A stretch of 64,000 nt of DNA from Atractiella rhizophila (taxonomy: Eukaryota): assembly GCA_021432655.1 (NCBI GenBank), contig MU271437.1, forward strand, positions 1 through 64,000, in the 5' to 3' direction. Shown here piece by piece: positions 7,640 through 54,344 of the stretch (its first letter is position 1; every line of letters starts with the position of its first letter). Below the pieces are notes generated by a model, which was not told the DNA's origin, searched no databases, and saw nothing but the letters and a program-made list of their open reading frames with translations. The translations under genes and the position numbers were made by a program.

Positions 7640-8430
7640 GTGGAAGATTGTAACTCCCATCTATGGGACTTATGGAGCGGAAAGGTGGAGCCTGTTGAAG
7701 GAGACCGACACCTTCTTTCTACAGATCAGAACATCCTTATTGGGGAGGTTATGCACAACGCGGTAATTGATCTGCCAGCACGCTTCTCAAACCGCATTCG
7801 CAATCTAGACAAGTTCCGTAATACGCGATATTCAATATATGAGTGGCTTGCATGGGTGCATTGGTATTCCGTTCCAATATTGCTGGAAGTTGGCTTCCAC
7901 ATCGAGCTCATACAACATTGGACGAACTTTGTCTCTGCAATCAAAATCATCACAAAAATCCACGCCGCCTCTTTGTCACAACTTAAAGTGCAGGTTCCTT
8001 CATCAGCAGCTTTTGTACTGGATTTGAGGAGCTCTACGTGCGGAACATCCCTGCTCTGGTCCGCCGTGTTCCAATGCCGGCATCAGCCGCCGCACATTGT
8101 CCCCCTGAGCAGGGTTCTAGGAAGCCTGATGAATTTCACACAGCTTCCTTTGGAGCGAAATTTAGGAACTGAGAAAGACAAGCGAGGTTCACGAAGACTG
8201 CCGTATGCCGAACTAGCGAATAACTTGATCCGGCGCGAACAACTGAATATTCTCAAGCTCTACATTCCTCGCATTGACACCTCTCCTAAACCTACAAAAA
8301 GAAGAAAAACTTTTTCCGCCAAATCACAGTCTAGGACGTTTGATTCTGCTCTTGAAAGCAGCATCTTGACCGCACTTCAGTCTTACCTTACGTCCCGTTA
8401 TGGGAACTGAATATGAAAGTGAAGACATCG
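7640..8430 (+). mobile_element. CACTA/En-Spm-like transposase C-terminal relic (DUF4218-like region)
   Basis: EWLAWVHWYSVPILL...HWTNFVSAIKII...QLPLERNLG...SRRLPYAELANNL resembles fungal En/Spm transposases. It is frameshifted, and 8281-8426 is duplicated at about 26697-26840. Confidence 0.6.
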
Positions 8431-9545: not shown

Positions 9546-9949
9546 GAACTTCACTGCATAAAAAAAAGAAGTAGTCTTAGTCTTTTGTTGCAACAACATG
9601 CAAGTTATTCAGTTCTTTGTTTCTTTTGGTGGTGCACGCTGGGCGATTCTACAATGTCCACTATGATGTGGGACCACCAAGGCAACTTTCCTACTGTTTT
9701 TCAATAAACAGTGAAAGCTGCAGAGCTGAATGGTTGACTATACTGTTAGGAACATGCAACAATCAGTGAAGTGAGTATGCATAACAATTCTTTACAAACT
9801 ACATTGATCTGTTTGCATGTTTCTCTCCAGGATCAAAATCCTAAATCCACGTGCCGTCACAATTCGGAACAAAAATCCTGAACCCCCATTCTTATTAAAA
9901 ACCAAGTAAGCACAGCAACCATCCATCCCTTGGATCCGCCGAGACACAA
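9546..9949 (+). repeat. ~400-bp direct repeat, copy 1, upstream of the MULE ORF
   Basis: GAACTTCACTGCATAAAAAAA...CCCTTGGATCCGCCGAGACACAA is nearly identical to 12436-12832. Confidence 0.9.
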
Positions 9950-9952
9950 ACA

Positions 9953-12061
9953 ATGTACAATATCATCCTGAAGACAGACGTGACACTTCAATGCATGCGT
10001 GTATTATTCCTTCAAACTCAAACAAAAACAGGCCATCGATATGAACCCTATAAGAATGCATCAGCACAACGAGGACCAAAAAAGAAGTGGGAATGGGTAC
10101 AGACCTACTCCTGTGATCACAGCGGAAAACCTCGAAAGCAGGAAAACAAGATGGGGAAACGAAACGTGGATCCTTCAATCAAGATCGGCTGCAAAGCGGA
10201 ACTTATAGTGCGCAAGTTCATCGGGGAACAATTTGTTGAAATTGAGCGTATTGACCATCACACTGGACATGACCCCTCATCTCTTAGGTCATTCCAAGAA
10301 TCAAGAATCCCTGCTCATTTACGTGCCTGGTTAGAAGACAAAGTTAACCGGGGCTTTGATTGGGGACCTATCAAGAGCCTCCTTGCATTAGAAGATAAGG
10401 CCATGGAAGTATTGGAGCAAGGTTTGGGGAACACATGTGGACCTTCATCAATCCCGGAAAGTATGCGTCTTGGATATCAAGATGTGTACAACTTTGTACG
10501 AAAGAGATTCAATGCCCTGGCAAATAAAGACACCGATGGATGGGAGAGCTTGAAGAAATGGGAAGCAGAGCTGAAAGCAGAAGGATGGGATACTCTTTTA
10601 AAAGAGTGTATCGGAAATGGTGATCCTGGCCAACAGACACAGCCTTTTGTGTTCTGTTTCATGGACAAATGGCAGAACGAGCTGTTATCAGAGTTTGGAC
10701 AGACAGCTTGCCTCGATTCAACTCACAACACAGCATTCTCAATTGAGGGGAAAGGATCCAAGGTCTTCCTCTACACGGTAGTGATTAAGCACCGTGGTGC
10801 AGGAAGGGGTATTCCGGCCTCATTCTGCATTACTACTGAAGAGCATCGATACCCCATAATCGATTTCCTTCGCTGGATCAGATATTGTGCCCCCTCCTTT
10901 CAGCCTTTACAATGGATGATCGACTGTTCCGACACAGAAGCTGCTGCAATTGCTCAGGTGTTTCCAACTGCAAAGATCCTTTTCTGTTACTGGCACCTCC
11001 TCAAAAGTCTGGTTGCACAATCAAAGGACAAGATCAAGCCGCTTCAAAAAGGAAGAACCAAGCAACAACTCGAGCTCAATGCGGAGAACAGAAATAGTGG
11101 GGTGAAGGATTTTGTCCAACTCTTGCATAAGGAAACTGAGTGTGGATTTGAAGAGGAGTGGAAACGTTTGAAGGAGAAATGGAAGCTTCAACCGGAGTGG
11201 GTTTCCTACCTCGAAACACAATGGATAAATCAGAAGGAACGATGGGGACAAGCCTGGAGAAAGGAGTGTACACTCAACATCGACACAAACAACTATATCG
11301 AGTCTTGGCATCGAGATCTCAAGGTCAACTACATCAAAAGAAAGAGGAGACAACGTGTTGACTATCTTGTCTTCCTACTTACACGACAGGTTCTCCCAGA
11401 TTACCGGAGAAAGGTCTTGCGCATCCTTTTGGGCTTTGAACGACGTGTTCAGGATAAAGCGGACCGTTCCTGTTATGCTCAAGCAGATGCCATCGACTAT
11501 ACCCTAGCAGGTAGCATGGTCCGCCATCTCCAAGGCACACTGGACCACGAAGGAGATGGAGAAGTAGCGAATGAAACTGATGGAGAAGTAGCGAATGAAA
11601 CTGGACTTCAGGTCCAATCATTTTCGGACCCTGCAGTTTGGTTTGAGATCTCCATCGCCCCATCAGGATATTTGGACAAATGTGGCTGTCCTTTCTTCAC
11701 ACGGAACGGCACACTTTGCAAACACCTTTGTTTGGCTGCAAGGGTGACTTCCTTTTCCGTTGGTTTCCAGCCTGCTGGATCACCTCTTTCATCAACTGAA
11801 GAGGCTAATGTGGAACAGTTAAGAAATGCAGAAAGGAGAAGACGAGAGGAGGAGGAAAGACAAGGAGAGGAATGGACAAGACTTCAAAATGTCTTGTTAA
11901 CCAAATTAAACGAGATCAAACACTTGGCTAGACAGCCAGAGATGTGGGCCTTTGGAGGAAATGTGGCACCTCAAAACCTCATAGATGGGATCAGCCATGC
12001 GGACACTCTCCTCCGCATAATCAAGTTTAGCGACCGAGCATTACACACAACACAACAATGA
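9953..12061 (+). CDS. Mutator-like (MULE) DDE transposase with C-terminal SWIM zinc finger, uninterrupted 702-aa ORF
   Basis: N-terminal YSCDH...SIKIGCKA...HHTGH (WRKY/FAR1-like). Catalytic motifs LDSTH (D), WMIDC (D), CYWH (CxxH) and TNNYIESWH (E). SWIM motif CGC...CKH. Confidence 0.92.
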   Translation: MYNIILKTDVTLQCMRVLFLQTQTKTGHRYEPYKNASAQRGPKKKWEWVQTYSCDHSGKPRKQENKMGKRNVDPSIKIGCKAELIVRKFIGEQFVEIERIDHHTGHDPSSLRSFQESRIPAHLRAWLEDKVNRGFDWGPIKSLLALEDKAMEVLEQGLGNTCGPSSIPESMRLGYQDVYNFVRKRFNALANKDTDGWESLKKWEAELKAEGWDTLLKECIGNGDPGQQTQPFVFCFMDKWQNELLSEFGQTACLDSTHNTAFSIEGKGSKVFLYTVVIKHRGAGRGIPASFCITTEEHRYPIIDFLRWIRYCAPSFQPLQWMIDCSDTEAAAIAQVFPTAKILFCYWHLLKSLVAQSKDKIKPLQKGRTKQQLELNAENRNSGVKDFVQLLHKETECGFEEEWKRLKEKWKLQPEWVSYLETQWINQKERWGQAWRKECTLNIDTNNYIESWHRDLKVNYIKRKRRQRVDYLVFLLTRQVLPDYRRKVLRILLGFERRVQDKADRSCYAQADAIDYTLAGSMVRHLQGTLDHEGDGEVANETDGEVANETGLQVQSFSDPAVWFEISIAPSGYLDKCGCPFFTRNGTLCKHLCLAARVTSFSVGFQPAGSPLSSTEEANVEQLRNAERRRREEEERQGEEWTRLQNVLLTKLNEIKHLARQPEMWAFGGNVAPQNLIDGISHADTLLRIIKFSDRALHTTQQ

Positions 12062-15728: not shown

Positions 15729-18700
15729 TCAAGCCTCTTTGGCAATTGTGGCAAGAGCCGTTTTGAACTTCCTCGTCTTCCGATCCCTCTCTCGGCGCAA
15801 TTGAGCCTTAAGAACCATGAGCGCTTGAATGGTGTCCGGTTTGAGGCGTGCACGGCGGATCCCAATAGTGTCGCGAGCTCCGCTGAAGACACGTTCAACA
15901 GCCATAGAACAGCCTGCGTAGCAAAGACTTGTTAGCCCAGTAATGGATGTGAGAAAGAAAGAGAAAACAACCTGGAATGGAGAGTATATCCCGGGCCATC
16001 TGTGACCACTCTTTGAGATCTGTTGTCGACCGTGTACGATAAACCTCCAGGGGATCTTTTGTCCAGGGTAGTTGGGGCAGACTGAACCATATATTTGGTT
16101 GGTGGTCCTCATCCTCTTGAATCACCAAACTTATGCGTTGTTGAGCCTTCTGCATAAGCTTAGCTGAATACGACACCGCAGTAGGTTCATCATCTTGCTT
16201 GAAGGATTCGGAAGGGGAGCAACTGTCGGAAGGTGGTACACGGCATTTACGAAGGTAGTTGATCTTGAAATGCTCAATTAGGGCCGCTTTGCTTGCCACA
16301 ATCACATCCCTATGTTCATCGAATATTGGGCTTGCGAGGAAGTAATGGTTGAGGCGAGGGTCGAGAACTGATGGCTGCAAGTCAAAGAAAGCGAAGCGTA
16401 GGCAAGGAAAAACACTTACAAACAGACCAAAGAGGGTAAGGAGATTGATCCAAGAGTGCGTTGTAGGTGCTCAGTTTTGTATGAGCCTTCACCAAACCAT
16501 CCCGAAATTCCGTTGGGATGGTTTCCGGCATAGTTACAATGAACTCCCTCAGTTCTGCCATAAGCCCGTAATACATCCCCAGCGTTGATGAGAGAGATGG
16601 CGTGGATGTGGTTGACATCTCGAGAGTTGCATTGCGGAAGGATTCAAGCCATGTTGTCACTACCTCTATCCCGTCCCACTCCGCCTTCTTCAGTCGCTGT
16701 CTCTCCAGCCCATACTGATCAACATATCTTTCAATCGCCTCCCGATATCACAGACAGAGTGCTAGCATGTCGTGGGTGGAGGACCAACGTGTGCAGCAGT
16801 CAAGGATAAGGATCTTGAGTTCTTCTTCCGACAGTTTTCCGAGCTCGTTGAGAGTGTCCTCAAGCAAGGTAAACCAGGTCTTTCGCCTTTGGGGTGTCAA
16901 GCGAACATGCTTGACAATGGAGCGAAGCTGGCATTACCAATATTGGTCATAATAGATCAATGAGGCATCAGCAACGCACCTTGGCGAGTATATCCTTCAC
17001 TATTCCGACTTGAACATCAATGTCTGTTTCATCATCCAAAGGTAACTCCCCCCCTCCAACCTTGATCTTCCTTGTCACTTCCTCTTGCCACAGAGCTGAC
17101 TCCATCACTTTGTTCTCCTTTTCTGGAAATGCACCAATAACCTTCAACAGCTCCATCGCAGCGAGATGTATGACATGCGGAGAGCAGAACACACGCCGTT
17201 CTTTTGCGCAGAAGGGTATACCACGTTCGAGCAGTCGGGACTCAATTCCTTCGACGGCGGTCGTGTTGTTCGATGCGCCATCTCCCGTAATACATCCTAG
17301 CTGTAAGCATTCATTGAGCCAATGTCCACTGTAAAAAAACAGCTGTACAAACCTGCCGATCAATCCCATAGTTGTCAACTGTCTTCATGATTGCATCTGC
17401 AAGGGCATCGCCAGTATGCGCTCCTTCAATCTCTTGAAAGTCAATAAGAACTTCCTCCAGCACCCAGTCTTTGTTGATGAACGAAGCAACGATCGCAAGA
17501 AAGGCATAGCAGTTATCGGAGGTCCACAGATCTTGAGCAAGGTGAATCTTGGTATCGAGGGCCTAGAAACTGCAATGAGCACCGAAGCAACAGAGATAGC
17601 TAAAGTATTACCTGAAGGCGTTCTCCTAAACACTCCTTAGTATCCTTAGCCATTGACAACACCTTCCTCTCAATGGTTTCACGGCTTGGCAGTTTGAGAC
17701 CTTTTTTCTCTTCATCAACTTCCATGACTGCTTGATCACTGGCTACCGAATCATCCTCGTCTGGGATAGGACCATCCTGTGGAACTGGTATTTCTTGCTC
17801 CTTGGAGATTGGAAGTGTCCACTGAAGGTACAGAAGAAGGACGAGGAATTCGATGGAGGTGACAGACATGAAGGGCTGGTCAGTACTGACAATGTATTTG
17901 AGGAGGATATCATCGAATATCTGTTGATCAAATGCCTACACAAAGTCACAAGTAGTAAAAGGTTCTAATACAGCCCTCACCTGCCTCTTATACTCATCTA
18001 TCATCCGGTTCATCATCTTCTTGATGGAGGAGGCTTGCAACTTCGCTTTTTTCTTATCTGAATCTGTAATCTAGCAAAGAGCCATGATCAACAATGAAAT
18101 ATGAACGCTTAAGGAGAAAATACGAACAGGAATATGCCCTGTAGCCTTATCCATATCTTCTTGAGGTATATCAGTCTCGTTCTTGACGAGAAGGAGGAGC
18201 TTTTGATAGAGCGAATAGGCGCCTTTATGATTTTGAGCGGTCCTAAGATGGCCTTCGAGGCTGGAATAGTTGTTGTGGCTGGCTTTTGTCACTCGGCAGA
18301 TGTAGTCGCAGTGATGGCACCCATAATATTTGTCTCCTTCGCTGTGACCCCTCTTGACACGGAGTGGGACACGAGCTTCGTCTGGAGAGATCTGTTCGAA
18401 GAAGTAATGGACGGTTGCTCGGTGTCGAGAGCTTATCAACTGAAACACATAGGTGGTAAGAAAGAATTCCGAATGTAAAGTAAGAGCATACTTTTGACTG
18501 TTGCTTAGCACGTATCTTGCGAGGACTAAGAGCTTTCATTGTGGACATGGGAGTAGTTGTGCCATTCTGTAAACATGTTCAGTTCATTTGAGACCGCCAA
18601 ATTGAAGCAACAGACCTAGCCGCGCTTCTTCGACTTCTTCATTGTTTTTGTCGGCAGCATCTCAGCCAGCTCCCGATTTGACACCACCTCCTCCGCCTTG

Positions 18701-19764: not shown

Positions 19765-22118
19765 CCCTAAATGGTCCCCACACAAGAGGTGGGAATCATT
19801 AACTCATGGCTAAGGGGAAGAAGCACGACCTATAACTTCGATGGATATTCTTCGGAGTTCTTCGTCCTGCATGTAGGACTGGCACAAGGCTCCCCCCTTT
19901 CTCCGATTCTCTATCTCTTCCACAATGCTGACCTTTTGGAAATACAGGCACCAGGAGGGGCATATCTCAAATGTGGGTTCGTAGACGACATCCACATGAA
20001 TACCCGTGCAACTAACCCGTCACAAGCCATCGCAAATCTTGAGGTGATGCTCGATAAAGCAATGGCTTGGGTGAGAAGCATGGGGCCATACTTGAGGAGG
20101 CCAAAACGGACTTTGTCCTATACGGGCATCTGAGGAAGATGAAATCCCGATACGGCCACCTTACTATTCGTGTTGGAACGACAACCATTCCCCAGTCGCT
20201 AGAGATGAAATACCTGGGAGTGCTCCTTGACTCCAGGTTAAATTTCAACTCTCATTTAAAAGCCATTGAGAAGAAGGCTAATGCCTCGCTCTCCCTCCTG
20301 GCATCCCTCTCCAACACAACGAAGGGAATCCCCCTACGACTGTATCGGCGCCTCTATGAGGCTGCTGTATGTGCAATGACCGACAACAACACAGTGGTAT
20401 GGCACCGCTTAGGGAAGAAGACAGGCGGAGCCATGCGCCTAGAAATCATTTAACGCTATGCCCAACGACTAATACTTGGGGCCTTCCGTACGACCCCCAC
20501 TTCTGCCCTCTCCTACGACTCCAACCTCACACCAGTAGTCGCCCACCTGGACAGGGTAGTCGCTAGGGCGATAGTCAGGTTACTCTCTCCTTCAAACTCC
20601 AACCCAGCAGGTCTCATTGCCTGGAAAACTCTGGCCCTGCTGTCTCCTAGTTCCCATCTCTCGCCACTCAATTACACTTTCAACTCAACCAGAATCACCT
20701 TCCCCAAAGGCCTCGAAGTCATTCCATCCTTCACCACCCACCCAGGGTGTACCCCTCCATTCAACGTCCCCATTGCAGAAACAAAAGAAGATGCCTCCAG
20801 GGAGTTCAACGAGCTGGTACAGGAGGCAGGAGAAACTTGGATCTTCACGGATGGTTCAAGAACAGAAGATGGTGTGGCATGTGGGCTGGCAATCACAGAT
20901 CCAGATATCAAGGCTGGTTACAGGATCGGCGGCTGTGACAAGAACACCGTCTTCGAGGCAGAATTGCTGGGGATTGACAGAGGCTTGGCGTTGGGCATAG
21001 CACTCAACAGAACACGAGGTACCCAATCCTCGGTCCGTATCTTTACGGATTCCCAGGCTGGAGTCAAAAACCTAGCTGAGAAGCCGAAAAGCAAACCGGC
21101 GGTTTGCGTTGTCAAGAACATCCACCACCTCGCCTCCACATTCCGAAAGGAGTTCCCCCTTGCTAACCTCTCGTTACACTGGATCCCTGGCCATGCTGAT
21201 ATCAAAGGCAATAAACTCGCAGACTCAGCGGCCAGCGGAGCTACTAATGCCAAGAAAGCAACGGGAACACATAGCCTCCCAACAAGCCCTTCGGCATTCA
21301 AGTCCACCATCTCACCATCGATGTTCACCCAAAGATACACCAATGCTACATCCTCCTTGGGGAAGCACCATCGCTCCCTCTCACGTGCATTGTCGCCAGA
21401 AGAGACACTCGAGGTACTAGCATCGATGCCCAGGGCTCAAGCATCCATCTTTGTCCAGCTCCGATCTGGGCACATATCTGTGAATGACTACCTACACAGA
21501 ATCGGGATCAAAGAGGACCCAGGCTGCAACCAGTGTGGCATGTGTGATACTGTTTCCCACTTCTTCTTCGAATGCGAAGAATATGACGAAGAATGGAAGA
21601 AGCTAAAGGAAGAAGGACATCCGGTTTAGATCTCTCAGCGACCTCTTAAGCAAGCCGGAAGCGATCCAAGCGGTATGGGAATCATTAGGAGGAGCGGCAA
21701 GTTCAACTTATGGATCAAGAGGGCACAAAGGGTGTTAGACAGGAGAAAGGAGGAGAGAAAGAAGTCAGGAGGCAGAAAGGAAGAGGATAAAAGGGAAGAC
21801 TGGGAGGACTAATCACCTCTAAGATAAGTCTCCTCCAAGAATAACTTAAAAACTTTCACTTAGCCATCCCAACGTAGAATCCCTCTCATGGTCATCCTGC
21901 TTAACGGTCATATTCCTTGCAAGGGGTGCTGGGGAATCATTACACTTCTTACTTTCACATCTCTTCTTATCACCATACATTGCATCTCACTCCCACCGAC
22001 GTACTTTGCTCACAAGTCTTTTTTTTACTTACTTTGATCAGTTCCCCAATGTAGAGCTCCGTTGACTACAGTCTGTAAGCTCTGAAATATGGTCACAATA
22101 ACAACAACAACAACAACG
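19765..22118 (+). mobile_element. 5'-truncated non-LTR retrotransposon (Tad1-like LINE): RT C-half, RNase H, CCHC knuckle, 3' UTR and (ACA)n tail
   Basis: QGSPLSPILY, FVDD, KYLGV, GAFRTTP, FTDGS, FTDSQA, WIPGH.DIKGN and C..C...H...C. Frameshift at about 20070 and TAA at 20451. Tail AATAACAACAACAACAACAAC at about 22097-22118. Confidence 0.93.
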
Positions 22119-22536
22119 ACTTCTCCGTCCGCTGAGGTCTGAATTATCCGCCTAATTTCTTCCAATTTCCATTATTCTCAGTTGTGAATGCTCTGTAATC
22201 TTATTCTATGTAAGAATATGGAAGTTTGCGCATCATTTTTGCCATTATGAACAAAGACAGGGCAACAAACAACAATCAACATTACTTTCGGAGCCGCATG
22301 AGCCGAATATCGTATCGTGGAATATCGTATCGTATCTTGTCGGGAGCGTGCCCCGGCGGTTCGATGGTGTGAGTCGAACTCGAACCGGGTTGTTTGCCGT
22401 ACTCTTTGGGCCTCTCCGATACGACTCGATTGATCTCTTAGTAGGAAACCCCGAGGGGGACCGCCACCTTTGAAATATGTGGATTGTGGTTATTCTTCAT
22501 CCCTTCAGCCATCTTCAGCACCGAATCTTTTCCTTT

Positions 22537-24982
22537 ATGAGCTCAATGTCAGCTCACGACGACGTCTATGAGTTACTTTTTCAAGTAGTGCATGTCGGTG
22601 ATGAAAATCAACTTGTTGGAAAAACGTCAGTGATCGAATTTCCTGCCAACAAAACAGTGGCAGCATTAGAGAAGGCCATTCGTCAGGAGTTTCCTCAAAA
22701 TCTCAGCACCAACGAATTTGATTTATGGATGATGGACCCAATGCTAGCCATCGAGGAGGAAGAGGTTGTGAAAACGATCCGGTTCCCCTCTGAAAGATTG
22801 AAAAAACTCCACCCCGCATTTCGGTTATCGAAATACTGGCAAGAAGCCCCTGGAGATGGACATCTACATTTGTTGGTCCAGCTGCGAGACCCACCGCTCG
22901 TATTACAACATCCAACATCTAGTAAGTAACCTGCGGTCATTTCATCCCTCTCTGATTTGTGTGTTAGTCTGGCAGGCTCACGGCATTCTCGATGACTATC
23001 AATTTCTTGCGCGCATCATGACAATCAAGGCGGGATCATTCGAGCCTCATGCCCTTCTAGAAGCAAACAACACCTCCCGGTCCAAGAATCCCGAGACCGT
23101 CACATCGAGAATGCTTTCGGCCGAGTGAAGAACACGTTAGGGCAACTATTTCAGCTCCCTGGAATGCCTGATGCTGTTACTCGCGCAATTGGAGCATCGC
23201 TTCAGAGCTTTTTTTTTCGACAGGGGCCTGCGACTCAGGGTCGAATAGCAACAGCGGCGGAGCTTCGTCATTATCATGAGGTTGCCGCAGCTCATCCCTT
23301 TTTTGGGAGATTTTCGGACAACAAGGAACCATATTTCAACTGGACCTATATGATGCCTGTGGCGAGAGAACTCTCCCGCCGCCGATATGGATCGGACCAA
23401 ATCTCCGACTTCATCGCGTACGCCTCTCGCTTTTGGTTGATTTCTACTGATATAGCCGATGGTTCAGTAATAGAAAGTGGTCAATTCATCTTTATCCTTA
23501 TACTGCTCAAACTCCAGCCACTTCTGAATCGCCAGCCGTCCCTATGAGACAGTACAAGTATCAACCTCGCAGCGACTTTCAAATTCAACGGCATGGCATC
23601 CCGCAAGTCCTCGTCGAAGTGCAATCAAAAGCGTCGGGAGAAGATCGTTGTCGGATGTTGCTGCAAGCTGGAGCTCTCGTCAGGGTGGTGAATCACGCGA
23701 TGAGAAGCGATGCCTCGAATCCTTATATTCTTATCGCGTACTATATCACAAACGCATTGGAGGCCGAACAATACTTATTGTGCATTGGTACAGACTCCGT
23801 GCGTAGATTTGCGACTTGTCTCCAGGTGTCACCTGTCGATTCTGTTATTCGTAGAAAACGGTGAAGTACTCTGAATACCGCTTCGATCTCCGCGTGCGTG
23901 AAGAAGCGTTCAAGTTTCTGCTTGAGCTATACAACTGCTCAGATGTGATCGATTCGAACAACAGTTGGATCAATGAAAAAGCGAGCAAAATCAAAGACAG
24001 CTTAAACACTTTCGGTCAGCTCCCGTCATTCACCAGCACGTCGAATAAGAAACGCAAAACCGCTCATGAAAGCGACGGAAACGACGACGACGGAAACGAT
24101 GGCGGACTTCTTGCTGTTCCACAAGTGCAATCTTATCTGACTAAATTGGGATATCGGCTGGAGTCACCAGAATCTAGGAGTTCTTGGATTCCATGGGAAG
24201 ACGTGTGTATTTTACACTCTTGGTTCGCCCTGTTGATCGCCTGACACCAGGTCTCGACTTCGTCCGTGGTGGCAGCCTCCGCATCCGACGGCACCCCTGT
24301 GATCATTAAACGAGCATGTAGCCCTAAAGAAGCTCAGATTCATCAGTTTCTGGCAGGCATATCTGACGTTAAAAATCACACGATGAACATTCGCGAAGTT
24401 TTGGGATTCCAGGACTACACGTTGGTTGTTCTCCCTCATGGGACTCCTCTACCGTCCTTGAGTCTGAATACTTCTCTTGCGATATCTTTGGCGGACCAAC
24501 TTGTTGATGGCGTGGGATTCATGCACAGTCATGGTTTTGTTCACCTCGATCTCAAACCCAACAACCTCGTCGTCGTCTCTAACGTCCTTAAGATAATTGA
24601 TTTTGGGTTGTCTCGCAAAGCTGGCGACGAGACCATCTTGAAAGGATATCGAGGAACTCGATCATGGGTCGCCCCTGAACTTGGAACAGAAGACGGACCG
24701 CAGCGAGTATTCCATCCGATCCCCGCTGATCTATGGGCTGTTGGCCTCATTATTTCTCGTTTCTTTGGTTCGTTCCTCCCACCCTGTCACTATCTCTTGC
24801 TTCTTGCTCCTGAGTTGATGTCAATGAATCCTCAATCGCGGCCACGGCTGGACAAATTGGATCGAAGGCCAAAGAAAAGAGTTTTGGAATCTGAATTTGG
24901 TTGGAGTAATTTGGGGAGTGAAAATGAAGGAATTGAAAGTGAGAGTCTGATACGTAAAAGGAGACATCTCATTGCTTGTTAA
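22537..24982 (+). CDS. Crinkler (CRN)-type protein: ubiquitin-like CRN header + REase-like domain + protein kinase; 5 exons, one reading-frame lesion in exon 2
   Basis: Header TVAALEKAI..FDLW..LHP...LSKYW..P..GHLHLLVQ..P (HVLVxxP-like). PRSDF...LVEVQS. Kinase motifs VIIK, HLDLKPNN, DFG, APE and DLWAVG. Introns at 22922-22967, 23480-23535, 23799-23854 and 24203-24250; the last three join in frame. Confidence 0.8.
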
Positions 24983-27310: not shown

Positions 27311-28043
27311 AATATTATCTTAAAGACAGCAAGATCTGAGATACAGAATCTATTTGATATGCACCGTGCAGCCTCTGTTTGAAAATCCAACAACAAAGAC
27401 TGACATACCGACCAAAGCTTACTCATCAATGAAAGCCACGCAACAACTACAATCATTCAATCCCTCTCCGTCACTCTCCATTCCAATGCAAATACGGTGC
27501 GAAAAACAGATCCCAGTTGTCGGCGGACGGGAGGAAGGTGTGTCAGAACCCTAAAGTACTGTTAGTAGGACCATAGGCTGACGGGACTCACCATGGCCCT
27601 GACCCTAACTCCGTTCCCCAGCCAAATTTGACTGACGGAACAGTTCTGTCGCGTAGGAATAGTAGTAGGAACTGTTCCGTCATGAAGGATCTGAAGGATG
27701 GCAGGCATGTGTCCAGGGACTTTCCCTACAGCTCATGGCAGCCATGTTAGGAGTACTTATTTACTGTTGGAAGCCTCTAGAGGAACATATCAAGAAGGAG
27801 AATTATACTCTGTGTGTTTCATCTTTGGTTCACTTTGAAGTCTCACTTTGTTGGGTTCTGATGGTTCTGCCCTCTCCTGTTGATGTTGGTCCCACCTTCA
27901 TCCCTAACACTGGCCTATTCTCTGACCAAACAGGCACTCTTTCCACATTGACAGGTATTAAATATTGTCTATAACAGATAACCCTGCAACATGAGTATGC
28001 AAACATTTGTTATTTATAAACGGACTGCCACCATGAAAAGGAA

Positions 28044-30770
28044 TCATCTCTGGTCTTCCGGGTCCACCAGCTCGTCCAGTCTTTCCACTTGTATGTTCTT
28101 GTTGAGTCCCAACGCTGCGTAAAAAACTTCAAAAGCTTGATCCTGCATAGATGCGTTGGTGCGACCAACAATAGTTGTCACCTCTCTCCACTCCGCCAGT
28201 CCAACCGTCCCCAACCCCTCCACCTGAAAGCGATGGTAATCCCCACGCCTCCCCTCTAGCTGAAATTGCTCCTTCACACTATTGGCAACCCGCGAACAAT
28301 CCGTCACAATGTCAGCCATGGCCTTCACCAATTCAAGGTAAGAGCCGCTGCCCTTGACTGCGGGTTGGGAGCCCGTCCCTAGGGAGATGAGACAAGAAAT
28401 GTGACTATGCTTGCCCCAGATGTGCTTCGTTTCGTCAATGGCAATCTTGGTCGGGTTATTGGCTCCCATACCACCATCAATATACAGAGTGTTATCCACT
28501 GTGATAGGGGCAAAAAACATGGGGGTTGCACTTGTGGCTCGAGCTGCTTGCCAGATCGCCATGTTAGCTGGTTGGTGAAGCCGAGTCCGATACGTTCGCA
28601 GGGGCGCTGGCTTGACATCGGCTGCATACGCCGAGGTGAGGAGGACTCGACATCTCCGAGCAAATTCGACGTCTGGATCTTTCATGCGTATCTCCCGAGA
28701 ATCGACATGTCCTGCTTCTGGAGCATAAAGAGCAAGCATCTCCATCATGGCTTCCTCCAAATTCTGACCATTGAACGCGAAGACCGCCTTGCCAAGGCCT
28801 TTGATAGCGTTGAGGCTCTTTTCGGTGACGGAAGGATCGGGGAATATTCTTTGCGCGAGCTCCTTATACACCTGAATGCATTGGCGAGTCGTCATGCCTA
28901 ACCTTCCAAGCATAATGGCAATGATCCCCCCCGTCGACGTGCCGCACATAAGGTCGAAGTAGTCGCAAGGCCGCAGCTCCTTTTTCTCAGGGTAGGGATC
29001 ATCAGGAAAGAGCTGAAGCGTAAGCTGCTCCATGATTTCTCCAGAATGTAGAGCTCAGATAACCCTCGTACGCCACCTCCGTCAAGGCAGAGAACCCGGA
29101 GGGCTTTCGGATCGGGATGGTGAGCCGTTGGAGGAACGCTGTAAACGTGGTTTTTGGGAGAGTGTTTCTTCATGCCACTCAGCGGTTTTGAACCTATGCA
29201 GCGACGGTGGAAGCAGAATGCGAGGATGACGAGGAGAATGAGTACCACAACTCCGCCAATTGCGCTCCCCACGATCACACCGACATTGATATGTGCTCTA
29301 TGTGAATGCCCACTCCCACTGCCAGACGTACTGCCGTTGCCAGTCCCGTCCGTTCCAGGGAGCCCAGAACCATCGAGAGATCCAGAGTTCTGTTGGATGG
29401 CTCGAGCGAAACCAATTTGGTGATTGGTGGTAGAGTTGTAGGAGAAGACGGTGTACCAGTTCTTCATGAATGCATCTCCAACAACCCCGAGTGGTGTGTT
29501 GTCGCTATCGACAGCCTATGGAACTGCAAGTTAGTATTGCCTGTCACTGAAAGAGGGACGAGAAACTAACATCCGTCGCCACGAGAATGATACCGCATTG
29601 ACCGTTTTGAGTGGTTCCGACAAACAAATCAAGAGGCGCCATGTCATAAATGTTTCCCCCAATGTTGAACCCGAAGTCAAGCGTGGCGAGGTCTCCACAA
29701 CTCATGAAGAGAACATAATTTCCGCCTCCTTGATTCTGGGTCCTAGCACCGATGCCTTCAGCGTAGGCTTGAATGATCCCCGCTGGAAGGTTAACCACCG
29801 AGCTTCCAGAGTCAACCAGCAGCCGCATGCTCGTCCCGCTGATGGTCTTGCCCTTCGCGGTCAACCCTTGACAGTCAACAGCCCAGAAAAAGTCCGATGT
29901 GACGTCTACAAAAGTAACGTCTCCCGTATAATGGCTCTTATCCGTACATCCAACGCAGATCTCACCGCCTGTAGAGTCTGTAGTTGAACCAGAATTGAAG
30001 TTCTGAAAGGTTCTATCACGTTCCAAGAAGAGGGAGAAGACAGCAGAATTGAGAGTGCCTCTATCTCCAGCTATGAGATGCTCCATGAAGGTCGTCTGCT
30101 TATTCCTGGCCAAGGTAGAGAAGCCAAGACCGATCAATCCATCCTCCACACCCCGCTCCAGTTGTTCTGAAGTGATGTTTGCCAGCGAGAAGCCTTGACT
30201 GGGAATCGTAAAACCAGCTATCCTGAGGGTGTCCTGTGCCACGAAACCAGTTATCGTCGTTCCGTCACCGTACGTTATTTCCCAGGGATTCGTGCTGCTG
30301 ACAAAGGTGGATGACGCTGAACTGGTGAAAAAGGGATGCTTCGTTGCATTGGAATCAGGGCCATAAACCCACAAGTCGGCTGATCCAGCTTTACACCACG
30401 AAGGTTAGCCGTGCTCGCGCAGTAGTTTGTGAACGAACTATCAAACTGGAGCGTGAAACTTTGCGCAGGAGTTCCCAATGCGATTTGGCCAAGGTAGATT
30501 CCTACAGCCTTCCATCAGCTCCAAGTTCCAGACAGAGGTAAGGCTAGACAAACCGTCGAGTGGAGCACCATTCAGGAACTCTTCCAGTCCGTCTGCCCGG
30601 TTTGAGAACCCCAGTCTGCGGCGTTCTTTGGACTCTGATGATTTGATGTGCTTAGTGAGGGAGACGACGTTGAGTCCCCTCTTCTGCCACTCTTCATGTC
30701 GCGATGATGAGGGAGGAAGAAATGTGGCAGATGCACCGATGACCCAGAGCAAACGTGAAAGCGTGATCAT
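28044..30770 (-). CDS. Receptor-like fusion: putative signal peptide + pepsin-family (A1) aspartic protease + TM helix + patatin-like phospholipase; 4 exons, 1-nt frameshift at about 29036-29038
   Basis: Introns at 30553-30502, 30438-30389 and 29570-29516 splice in frame. Protease motifs: YLGQIALGTPAQ, FDTGSADLWV, ITYGDG, DGLIGLGF, VDSGSS, VVGDAFMKNWYTVF. TM: INVGVIVGSAIGGVVVLILLVILAFCF followed by HRR. Patatin motifs: LDGGGVRG, GTSTGG, ARATSATP, YIDGG. Confidence 0.88.
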
Positions 30771-31000
30771 TTGACTTGAATAGTGAGACTGAGACAACGA
30801 AGGAAAACTGGTAGGATGCTGCTGAAGAGAGAGGATTCGAGTGTTTTGGTGTTGTAACTGAAAAGTTAAAGGGAATTTACGAATGGAGGGACTACAGAGG
30901 TTAAAAGGAATTCGACCTGTTCTAGGCCTAGGGCTGTTCACCGTCCGTCTGAAGCGAAAGTTTTCCTGGACGACAAAGGGACGGTTGGCAAACTGGTCGC

Positions 31001-31113
31001 AGGAGCAGGGCGACGATGACGGGGAGGAGAAGGAAGAGGAGCAGGGCGACGATGACGGAGACGAAATGGAAGAGGAGCACGACGGCGATGACGAAGAGGA
31101 GGAGGAAGAAGGA
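31001..31113. repeat. Degenerate ~36-bp GA-rich tandem repeat (EQGDDDG-type or Ser-rich)
   Basis: GAGCAGGGCGACGATGACGG... occurs about 3 times. Confidence 0.6.
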
Positions 31114-32530
31114 GGTTCTGTACTAGCGCCTTCACTTGAAGCTGGCGAGAGCAATGGCGTGTATCGTCGCCGTTGCGTGAATCCACTGGTAGAATACTTG
31201 AGAACCACATTTCCTAGCGATGCGAAGAAAACTGTAATTTTTCGGACGTCGGAAAGCATCCAAAAGAAGGTGTTCACGCTCTGCAGTTCGAGGAGTGGAG
31301 AGAAATATCCTTGCGAGGTTTAACGCTTAAAGTCGTCGTCAAGCTCGTGAACATCCTCCTCACTCCGGAGAAACCGGCTTATCTTTGGGCGACTGGCGCA
31401 TTGAGGGTATGATGAACGAGGCGACGGGATGGGGCTATTTTACGATGATGAAAACGTTACCGAGAGCAAGTTGAGCTTCAGACGCGGCGTGGAAGAGGTC
31501 CCCACCTTTCCCTTTACTATTTAAAAGTCACTCTTTGCGCTACGCGTGGGCTGGTCTTAGCCAGATGGATGTGCCGATATGGAGGATGAGGAAGTCATGG
31601 CTGAGTTCGCCTTGAGAAAGTTCGTCCCCCTCCTTATCCGTCCTTCGTGCAATTGATGAACTTGTGCGCAGCGACGGACCGTTGAACCAGCCACTGGGGA
31701 GGTAATCACCAAAGAGGGGCGATGCATCACTTTCCCCAACCACATCCAACACTGCGTCTCCTCCTTTTCCCTCATCGATAAAACCAAGCTTGGATATACA
31801 TTTTCAGCGGTTGATTTGTGCCAATGAATCCATAGATTGAAGGAATTGCACCAAGAGATCCATAACAGCTGAGAGAAAATAAAACTTGCAGAAAGGGATA
31901 TGTCAAGAGGCACCTGCTTGGCATCTTTGTCAGCCAAAGTGGACCAGCACAGATTAGCACTTACTTGGGTCCAATCTCAGGCTGAGGTGCTGACGAGCGA
32001 GGAAAGGCAATGTTGGGAGATACTTGCTCTAGCCGTTGTTGGTGTGCGCCAGAATTGCAGCAACAGTCAGTTACGGTAGCATAGGTAAAATTGGCGCACC
32101 TGTCTGCAGCCTCCTCGTGCCATACTCTGCTCCAGTCTAGCGACTTCGTTGCATCCGTGCAGACCTAGAACTGTCCACGAAGTCTGACGTCTCAGGTTGA
32201 TGTAGTCCGCCGTCATCATCCGCTGCCAAAGCCAAAGTGAGGGGACTTCCACTACCCTCCCTGAGATATTCGCTCTCATGCCTAGCAGCTTGCTGACAGG
32301 GGCGAGGCTTGTGAGCAAGGTGTCAGACCGCCGCCACGCAAGCAAAAGATCGTTTGCGCTTTCAATTTTGACCCAAAGGCCACTTCACTTTCAAATCAGT
32401 TTTCATCGTGTCGACTCCGAACCGCCGAAACGCCGCTCAGGGTTCTCAACCCCTGAGGGGCTGCATGTTCTTCCACGTCGCCAACTTGCGGTTGGATCCT
32501 TCCAGACTCCTCCGTGTTTTGTTTCTTCAT

Positions 32531-52778: not shown

Positions 52779-54062
52779 ATGGCTCCTCAAAACACAAAAG
52801 TAAACACAATCAATACCTTACCCGCTGGGAAAGTAGAATGCCCTGACTGCCACAAAGTGTTTTCTTTCGCCAAAGGCAGCATTAAAAGACATCGTGCACT
52901 CCAGCACCCAAAGCCTGCTCAGCGAGCAGGCTGGAAACCCATCAAGCTTGATGGAAGGCATGTTGGAATATTGTCTGAGAATGTGAGTACACTTTCTTCA
53001 TCATTTCATATTGCTGATAATTGAAGCAAGGATATCCCCAACTCAGATGGTTCCGAATCAAATAATGAGGAGGATAATTCGAAGGACGGCACTTGCTCTG
53101 GGGTTCACCACCAACGTGATCGTGTGTCCAACTTGTTTTCAGCTTCCTTAAGAACACACTACTGACATGTGCACTTATTGAAGAGGCTTTCAACGCATCA
53201 CAACCCCACCAATCTCCGGATCCGTCCATACCAACGACCTTGCCTCTCTCATATTCATCATCCAATCCAGTTTCCACTCCAACCTCCTCGTTATCTGACA
53301 ATGAGGAATGGGACACAGCACTTCTACAAGAACTGGGTGGCCCGTATTTCCAGCTTCTTCATCCAGATTCACTTTCTACAACTCCATTTTCGTACCATTG
53401 CCACCACGCTCCTTTCAAATCCACTAGTACAAGAGAATTATCTCCCTATCATCCCTTTAAAACCGAAGCTGACTTCGATATGGGATCTCATGTCTTTCAT
53501 CAAGGAATGACACAACGGGACACTACGGCATACTTTCGCAACCTCAAGAAGCACGGCCTACCGCACTTTACACTCGACTCCTTCAAAGATCTTAGAGAAA
53601 CACCCAAGAAGGACAGGATGAGTGTCACCACTGAGGTGCGTCGTTTTATTAAACACGATGCATTGACTTATGCCGGTTAGTTTCAAGAACACCTGATTTC
53701 GGCTGAGTTTGATGGAAAAGTGATACAACATCGTATATTTCTTCGAGATCCAATTGATATTATGAAGGAAGTGATTCGGGACGACTCCACCCGCCAGCAT
53801 ATGCAGTTTTACCCTGTCAAAAAGTTCAAAAGGACTGGGAACCCGCCATTCCGCAAGGTGAGGGCATATGATGAGCTGTGGACTACTAAGCGCTGGTGGA
53901 AGCTTCAAGTGAGTCTTCTTCATGTTATTCACTCACAAGAGTATCATACTCAAATGTTCTCAGGACTTGTTACCCAATCACAACGGGTGCATTGGTGCCA
54001 TCATCCTATATTCGGATGGGACGAACGCAGTGAAATTCGGACAAAAGACAGTTCACCCAATC
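52779..54062 (+). mobile_element. Plavaka-type transposase, N-terminal part with C2H2 zinc finger, 3'-truncated
   Basis: CPDCHKVF...IKRHRALQH, PYHPFKTEADF, FLRDPIDIM, YDELWTTKRWWKLQ and IILYSDGT..FGQKTVHPI. Introns are present. Confidence 0.8.
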
Positions 54063-54344
54063 TCATTTCCCTCTTCCCTCTTGTTCCCTCCACCTGCATT
54101 GGCCTACTCCATTCCACTTCATGGCGGCTCTTCATGTTCATGTTCAAGTACCCCTTAACATCGTAGGACAATAGGACAGGATGGGATGAGGACGAAAAAA
54201 ATGATCTGGCGATGATGTAAAAGCTTGCTGGGGACGGACGACTCCCATCCCTATGAACTGTGGACGACTTTACCTCAACTGTGTCTCTCGGAAGATCCCT
54301 GTGCCTGCACTTCAAGGCACTACTAACCAGGATCAGCTGTCCCT

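Follow-up and report, generated by a model that had tools for sequence, protein, structure and literature searches.

A pepsin-type protease gene joined in frame to a frameshifted copy of a patatin-like phospholipase in Atractiella rhizophila

Results

Organization of the gene

The subject of this analysis is a stretch of 64,000 nucleotides from Atractiella rhizophila (GenBank assembly GCA_021432655.1, contig MU271437.1, positions 1 to 64,000 of the forward strand), hereafter referred to as the window. On its minus strand, from 30770 to 28044, lies a gene in which an A1 (pepsin-type) aspartic protease, a transmembrane (TM) helix, and the beginning of a patatin-like phospholipase follow one another in a single frame, with the remainder of the phospholipase displaced by one base. 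A preliminary description of the locus had proposed a surface receptor in which an extracellular protease is coupled to a cytoplasmic phospholipase. The observations described below point instead to a chimeric gene, probably young, whose lipase has been inactivated. The features of the gene and of its surroundings are listed in Table 1.

Table 1. Features of the protease-patatin gene and transposon remnants in the window
Feature	Position	Strand	Remarks
Exon 1	30554-30770	-	Begins at 30770 with the start codon; N-terminus hydrophobic, probably a signal peptide; then a propeptide-like region
Intron 1	30502-30553	-	52 nucleotides, GTTTGT..TAG
Exon 2	30439-30501	-	Ends with YLGQIALGTPAQSFTLQFD and base 1 of the codon for the Thr in DTGS
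Intron 2	30389-30438	-	50 nucleotides, GTTCGT..AAG; interrupts the first catalytic motif, DTGS
Exon 3	29571-30388	-	Body of the A1 aspartic protease: remainder of DTGS, flap YGDG, DSGS
Intron 3	29516-29570	-	55 nucleotides, GTTAGT..TAG; perfect TACTAAC branch site
Exon 4, first part	29300-29515	-	Completes the Asp domain at its C-terminus; Ser/Gly-rich linker
TM helix and HRR	29201-29290	-	From hydropathy; TM helix plus RRR homologous in P0004-P0006
Joint region, CIGSKPLSG	29174-29200	-	Carries the likely fusion breakpoint at ~29182
Patatin N-terminus, frame of protease and TM helix	29036-29173	-	From Met (MKKH) via the GGGVRG oxyanion loop to ..ILEK
Missing base (frameshift site)	29033-29039	-	Both frames overlap at 29036; relatives read ILEQIMEQ
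Out-of-frame tail of the open reading frame as written	28898-29035	-	45 non-patatin residues, then TAG at 28900-28898
Patatin remainder, shifted frame	28044-29036	-	GTSTG at 28943-28929, DGG at 28478-28470; stop at 28046-28044
MULE/SWIM transposase	9899-12058	+	Open frame of 720 residues
hAT dimerization domain	15732-16121	-	Transposon remnant
Reverse transcriptase and RNase H	19771-21626	+	Transposon remnant
Plavaka transposase	53681-54163	+	Transposon remnant

Splicing by script yields four exons. All three introns display GT..AG borders, with a CTRAY branch site located 15-20 nucleotides from each 3' end, and exons 1-3 together amount to 1098 nucleotides, or 366 codons. Parts of the model are matched by other A. 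rhizophila proteins. The tblastn match of one of these, P0004, to exon 1 starts at 30674, and residues 1-20 of another, P0270, align to 30496-30437. Exon 3 is 86.6% identical to P0270, and the beginning of exon 4 shows 96% identity to it over 53 residues. The N-terminus is only modestly hydrophobic, with a Kyte-Doolittle value of 1.12 for residues 4-20.

On exon 3 alone, the Pfam Asp profile (PF00026) scores 164.1 bits (cut-off 19.9) over positions 22-281 of its 315. Of the two catalytic motifs, DTGS falls at residue 93, across the junction of exons 2 and 3, and DSGS is positioned at residue 286 (29813-29802). A YGDG sequence at 30272-30261 is taken here to be the motif containing the flap tyrosine of the A1 enzymes. 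Among structurally characterized A1 proteases, those most similar in sequence are renin, gastricsin, and proteinase A. With both catalytic motifs kept, this half of the gene encodes an A1 pepsin-type protease of the ordinary kind that is predicted to be active.

When 19-residue windows with a Kyte-Doolittle value above 1.6 are considered, the sole strongly hydrophobic stretch is that delineated by residues 440-475 (29290-29210), for which the maximum is 3.06. The sequence HRR at 29209-29201 follows the helix directly and provides a positive-inside signal. Nine residues beyond HRR begins the patatin-like sequence MKKHSPKNHVY...LRVLCLDGGGVRGLSELYILEK. The segment LRVLCLDGGGVRG (29101-29063), with the GGGVRG oxyanion loop at 29080-29063, shares both exon and frame with the TM helix.

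The frameshift

The reading frame of the TM helix does not extend through the patatin domain. At position 29036 the sequence ILEK closes the upstream frame, and the sequence IMEQ opens the downstream frame at the same base, indicating that one base has been lost. The close relatives are unbroken at this site and read ILEQIMEQ, as is also observed in P0121, a partial model that is 89% identical across it. The missing base lies between the GGGxRG oxyanion loop and the GxSxG serine. The patatin motifs GGGxRG, GxSxG, and DG[GA] are all present in the DNA, split between two frames, and a single continuous patatin frame holding all of the catalytic elements was not found. Indeed, the frame at 28047-29054 matches the Pfam Patatin profile (PF01734) with 78.4 bits (cut-off 27.7) over profile positions 23-191 of 191, and the first 22 profile positions fall in the other frame. 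Patatin is the only Pfam match in this region; following it is the stop codon at 28046-28044, with no NB-ARC domain, NACHT domain, or repeats.

As written, the open reading frame encodes 571 residues and terminates at 28900-28898, before GTSTG. The cytosolic tail of this product would be ~100 residues in length, consisting of 9 from the joint, 46 of patatin, and 45 out of frame. Reading through the missing base gives 366 + 490 = 856 residues. An intron that would restore the frame (GT..AG, 47 nucleotides by hand count, from GGC|GTACGA) was considered and rejected because it removes VRGLSELYILEKIMEQ, and with it two residues (Arg-Gly) of the oxyanion loop, and because the paralogues code straight through this region.

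The observations in the preliminary description were thus substantiated throughout. Splicing, hydropathy, and motifs agree with its layout of three GT-AG introns, a protease, a linker, a TM helix followed by HRR, and a patatin beginning in frame. The shift of one nucleotide, with GTSTG and DGG located after it, and the restored length of about 856 residues were likewise reproduced, and the Asp and Patatin profile matches that it anticipated both lie above the Pfam cut-offs.

Read support for the junction and the missing base

Of the words sampled from this stretch, 96% are contained in two DNA sequencing runs from one sample (X1 and X2). In each run one contig spans 27879-29393 and matches it without a difference or a gap, at depths of 85 and 115, respectively. 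These values are like those of the flanking single-copy contigs, namely 83-96 and 120-122. Starting in the final conserved residues of the protease, the region covered extends over the stalk, the TM helix, the junction, and the frameshift to the end of the patatin. Because single contigs in both runs reproduce the TM-patatin junction and the missing base exactly at single-copy depth, both are real and neither is an assembly slip. Note that the window itself may have been assembled from X1 and X2, and the agreement is accordingly a check on the consensus rather than on a second individual.

No RNA run was listed among those containing the stretch. A third run, X3, originates from another study (2025) and is presumed to be RNA. 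At a depth of 2-3 it provides contigs of 151 letters that are identical to 29114-29264 and 29269-29419. Its coverage is limited to 29114-29481, and the frameshift lies outside it. The segment 29394-29473 is common to paralogues and displays raised depth, with no single-copy contig across it among those listed. As this segment is shared with paralogues, the identity of the Asp paralogue lying upstream rests on the assembler.

Given that the gap of one nucleotide is real in the read-derived contigs, the present allele cannot produce a patatin with its serine. It lacks the Ser nucleophile of the lipase and cannot encode a working phospholipase.

Paralogues of the two halves

All close relatives of both halves are proteins of A. 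rhizophila (Pucciniomycotina). On the protease side, P0270 (399 residues, partial) is 87% identical in its protease and continues into a Ser/Gly run and a hydrophobic C-terminus resembling a glycosylphosphatidylinositol (GPI) signal. In the proteins P0004-P0006 (574-588 residues; 51% identical) the stalk recurs along with the TM helix and an RRR sequence, after which each has an unrelated tail of ~110 residues. The A. rhizophila Asp proteases compared end in a TM or GPI-like anchor, and none carries a patatin. P0270, the closest protease relative, is without the TM helix and tail, and the type of anchor thus switches between close paralogues. In P0004-P0006 the catalytic sites read DTVS and AAGY, as opposed to the two D-T/S-G motifs of active A1 proteases. 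On this basis these may be inactive proteins of the pepsin fold that are held in the membrane and bear tails of ~110 residues.

On the patatin side, P0271 (378 residues) and P0157 (402 residues) show 77-78% identity over 330 residues to the copy in the window; the identity between the two is 89%. P0271 and P0121 start at MKKH, the methionine of which corresponds to 29173, and P0157 contains 25 additional residues before this point. The sequence LVDPEDQR forms the C-terminal end of P0271, of P0157, and of the window copy. A search for paralogues, as the preliminary description had suggested, was therefore productive for each half, but all of those found are separately encoded, with the patatin homology beginning at the native start codon.

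The boundary between the halves can be placed from both sides. A contig in the reads that represents a paralogous protease, with a stalk 30 nucleotides shorter, follows the window to ~29182 but not beyond it. Homology to the patatin paralogues begins at 29182-29173. The block of Asp-TM homology and that of patatin homology thus abut ~9 nucleotides upstream of the patatin ATG at 29173. As judged from these alignments, such abutting blocks are the signature of a patatin gene copy that was inserted into, or recombined with, the tail end of a protease-TM gene, and both halves appear to be recent copies from separate A. rhizophila gene families.

Search for fused relatives

A second example of the architecture was sought in several collections. 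With the Asp exon as the query against proteins of 502-2000 residues, none of the three matches carries Patatin. With the patatin as the query against proteins of 589-2000 residues, PF00026 was absent from all 120 examined, these being the best 120 of 249 matches. The junction exon, compared with proteins of 360-2000 residues, returned one protease and one patatin, neither of them fused.

A HMMER search of 1.84 billion representative sequences gave 8114 matches, and among the best 150 of these, 23 were scanned for Asp, with 0 positive. The 23 were chosen as proteins in which the patatin lies well inside the chain, together with the best few. They include all eight with at least 330 residues before the patatin match, and 0/8 of those N-terminal extensions, again among the best 150 of 8114, carries Asp.

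Metagenomes provided a further source. Of 80 patatin loci (24-44% identity), none displayed an Asp match in the fetched flanks by tblastn at E ≤ 1, and a scan with the junction exon produced 207 pattern matches and 0 relatives. For the junction piece the best scores in the ESM Atlas were 0.77-0.78, which is below a meaningful level. In the literature, searched by title and abstract without supplements, no described Asp-patatin fusion was found, nor did any of the papers listed for the A. rhizophila genome deal with this gene.

Within the databases and literature searched, then, no described or annotated protein with the Asp-TM-patatin architecture was encountered, in keeping with the statement in the preliminary description that it was not a known family. 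By the same comparisons, the architecture would not represent a conserved family, for it was seen at a single locus and in a broken frame.

Genomic surroundings

The window is rich in transposon remnants and contains few ordinary genes. A high-copy repeat, at ~65 times the single-copy depth, begins 136 nucleotides past the stop codon of the gene. Over this repeat, at ~27800-27908, the depth of the read contigs is ~5500 and 10000, as compared to the single-copy values of 85 and 115. Within the window, the segment 26696-26841 repeats 8280-8426 (147 nucleotides, 95% identity). Apart from this match and one weak match upstream, no repeats flanking the gene were found inside the window, and none bracket the patatin block. 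A transposon-rich region of this kind fits an event in which a patatin copy was inserted or recombined.

Approximately 3 kb from the fusion gene there is a Crinkler N-terminal domain (22474-22926, plus strand), followed by a protein kinase domain (24245-24979, plus strand). This Crinkler-kinase type gene (22474-24979, plus strand) is spread over several frames, reflecting either introns or decay. Upstream of the start codon of the fusion gene, both strands are open (30862-31320 on the plus strand and 30444-31319 on the minus strand). The stretch is of low complexity, rich in acidic residues (Glu/Asp) on the plus strand and in Ser/Pro on the minus strand, and is without a Pfam match. A run of 294 N at 1887-2180 marks an assembly gap in the window.

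Discussion

The explanation favored here, to which a probability of roughly two in three is assigned, is that the locus contains a young, lineage-specific chimeric gene that arose in the Atractiella lineage and whose lipase is inactivated. The recipient gene would have encoded a pepsin-type protease that looks active, preceded by a signal peptide and followed by a stalk rich in Ser and Gly, a single TM helix, and a tail in the cytosol. The part coding for the tail would have been replaced by a duplicate of a standalone phospholipase gene of the patatin type found in NOD-like receptors (NLRs), with the join falling ~9 nucleotides upstream of the patatin ATG and in frame by luck. The patatin copy has since lost one base; the order of these events is one that we infer. 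Because the N-terminus is signal-like, the TM helix is single, and HRR follows it, the protease is predicted to lie outside the cell or in a lumen and the tail in the cytosol. At present the gene product most likely functions as a membrane-anchored A1 protease of the yapsin/BACE kind, which would operate at the cell surface or in a lumen, with the lipase persisting as a relic.

Several points weigh against this explanation. The junction is in frame, for which the chance expectation is ~1 in 3. No stop interrupts the 336 codons downstream of the frameshift. Among the 86 columns that are invariant in four other Atractiella patatins, the copy is changed at only 2, whereas its overall difference from both close paralogues amounts to 43 of 277 columns, this count serving as a rough stand-in for the ratio of nonsynonymous to synonymous substitution rates (dN/dS). 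Because the downstream frame is fully open and the constrained sites were kept, the frameshift looks recent and the patatin looks to have been constrained through most of its history. The column count leaves the order of constraint and fusion undated, however, and the constraint may all predate the fusion. In addition, the X3 contig at 29114-29264 bridges the breakpoint, and therefore the junction exists outside the source sample. The breakpoint at ~29182 on the Asp side was derived from a single table line (98-letter side). The finding of no fused relative covers predicted proteins and Joint Genome Institute (JGI) metagenome contigs, and the word-indexed searches were insensitive, having returned three and two proteins for the Asp and junction exons, respectively. 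Finally, other isolates may harbor an intact, working fused allele.

One alternative is that the locus encodes a fusion receptor that works or did so until very recently, namely a type-I membrane protein of 856 residues, with an extracellular protease domain and a cytosolic patatin lipase, for which the window happens to present a null allele. The in-frame junction, the open codons past the break with so few constrained columns changed, and the recurrence of the junction in the X3 run of a second study all agree with it, as does the presence of DTGS, DSGS, GGGVRG, GTSTG, and DGG in the DNA. Null-allele polymorphism is, moreover, frequent in fungal immune-type genes. Still, the constraint is not datable relative to the fusion and may all be older, a second fused copy was not encountered in the databases searched, and the sole allele seen is broken, as confirmed by reads. 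A join located where the patatin itself starts, in surroundings full of transposon remnants, also has the look of an accidental juxtaposition. On balance this alternative is considered unlikely.

Somewhat more doubtful again is the fuller claim that the fusion is, or was until the frameshift, a working type-I protein of which intact alleles segregate in other isolates. If true, domain shuffling in Atractiella would have set an immune-type patatin lipase of the NLR family immediately beneath a pepsin-like domain outside the cell. The result would be a one-chain switch leading from the surface to membrane damage without a nucleotide-binding domain, and a cell-death-type phospholipase tethered behind an extracellular protease would constitute an effector wiring that has gone unreported.

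The receptor proposed in the preliminary description therefore survives in part. A protease, a TM helix, and a patatin do follow one another in frame in the DNA, but the gene is not intact, with the gap of one nucleotide being present in the read contigs. The suggestion of a new receptor family was not upheld, given a single locus and no fused homologue in the databases searched, an outcome that the description had itself named as speaking against it. A misassembly at the junction, which it had named likewise, proved not to be the case, as the X1 and X2 contigs cross the junction unchanged.

A different possibility is that two transcription units are present, such that the protease-TM messenger RNA ends within the joint region or shortly past it and the patatin was expressed from its own ATG at 29173, as its standalone paralogues are. 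The fusion would then be a mere uninterrupted frame between abutting genes. The starts of P0271 and P0121 at the methionine of 29173, with that of P0157 lying 25 residues earlier, are in agreement with such an arrangement, and the Asp-TM homology does end ~9 nucleotides before that methionine. From HRR to the ATG, however, there are only ~27 nucleotides, too few to accommodate a terminator, a promoter, or a stop codon in frame, and the patatin would be frameshifted even so. This arrangement is regarded as improbable. An artefact, either a mis-joined TM-patatin segment or a homopolymer error at the missing base, is hardly credible, for although the assembly is a draft with a run of N at 1887-2180 and no single-copy contig listed crosses the depth-raised, paralogue-shared segment 29394-29473, one contig from each of X1 and X2 covers 27879-29393 without difference, and X3, from another study, is exact over 29114-29264 and 29269-29419.

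If the locus is indeed a young chimera with an inactivated lipase, it represents a gene fusion observed near its birth and already disabled, with both parent families persisting as separate genes. It would illustrate the shuffling of fungal immune-type effector domains in transposon-rich regions. For purposes of annotation, the locus is not to be read through as a protein of 856 residues.

Comparison with known systems

The closest counterparts of the protease half are the membrane-anchored acid proteases of A. rhizophila itself, P0004-P0006 and P0270 (KAH-series NCBI records). Like the protein encoded in the window, they have a signal-like N-terminus, an A1 protease, and a stalk of the form GSLxGSGLPGTDGT. 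P0004-P0006 are anchored by a TM helix plus RRR, and P0270 has a GPI-signal-like end instead. Beyond the anchor there is either no tail or an unrelated one of ~110 residues and low complexity, whereas the tail in the window is a patatin copy. The catalytic motifs differ as well, in that P0004-P0006 read DTVS/AAGY and the window keeps DTGS/DSGS. As far as these sequences indicate, the layout of a membrane-anchored protease is not new, being already represented in the Atractiella paralogues. More generally, the A1 proteases of the yapsin/BACE type carry a C-terminal membrane anchor and have short tails or GPI anchors. The window protease is predicted to be likewise anchored, but the region of its tail contains a phospholipase gene copy instead.

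For the patatin half, the nearest relatives are Atractiella proteins annotated as "FabD/lysophospholipase-like protein" (P0271, and P0157, which is KAH8917082.1). Their start, their end, and the motifs GGGVRG, GTSTG, and DGG are as in the window. Their genes stand alone and intact, and neither a protease nor a TM helix precedes the patatin in the protein models, whereas the window copy is fused and one base short. By sequence, the window patatin belongs to the same subfamily as the patatin effector domains of fungal NLRs, such as PLP-1 of Neurospora. Indeed, as the preliminary description had supposed, NB-ARC or NACHT follows the patatin in 88 of 120 long relatives (hand count; best 120 of 249 matches). 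According to a published review, patatin-like phospholipases are among the N-terminal domains of NLRs, and the patatin of PLP-1 is needed for regulated cell death (PMC10197012). The NLR patatins form the N-terminus of a cytosolic NLR, whereas the window patatin would be C-terminal, behind a TM helix, and without NB-ARC or NACHT.

The closest solved structure to the patatin half is that of CapV (8zr9, 9kej), the patatin phospholipase of the bacterial cyclic-oligonucleotide-based antiphage signaling system (CBASS) that is activated by cyclic GMP-AMP (cGAMP); the match has an E value of 1.7e-18 and extends over profile positions 21-239. CapV differs in being bacterial, soluble, and nucleotide-activated, and its kinship with the window patatin is one of fold and family only. 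The combination found in A. rhizophila is thus that of two known kinds of protein joined to one another, a singleton with a broken frame that is most likely a young chimeric partial pseudogene.

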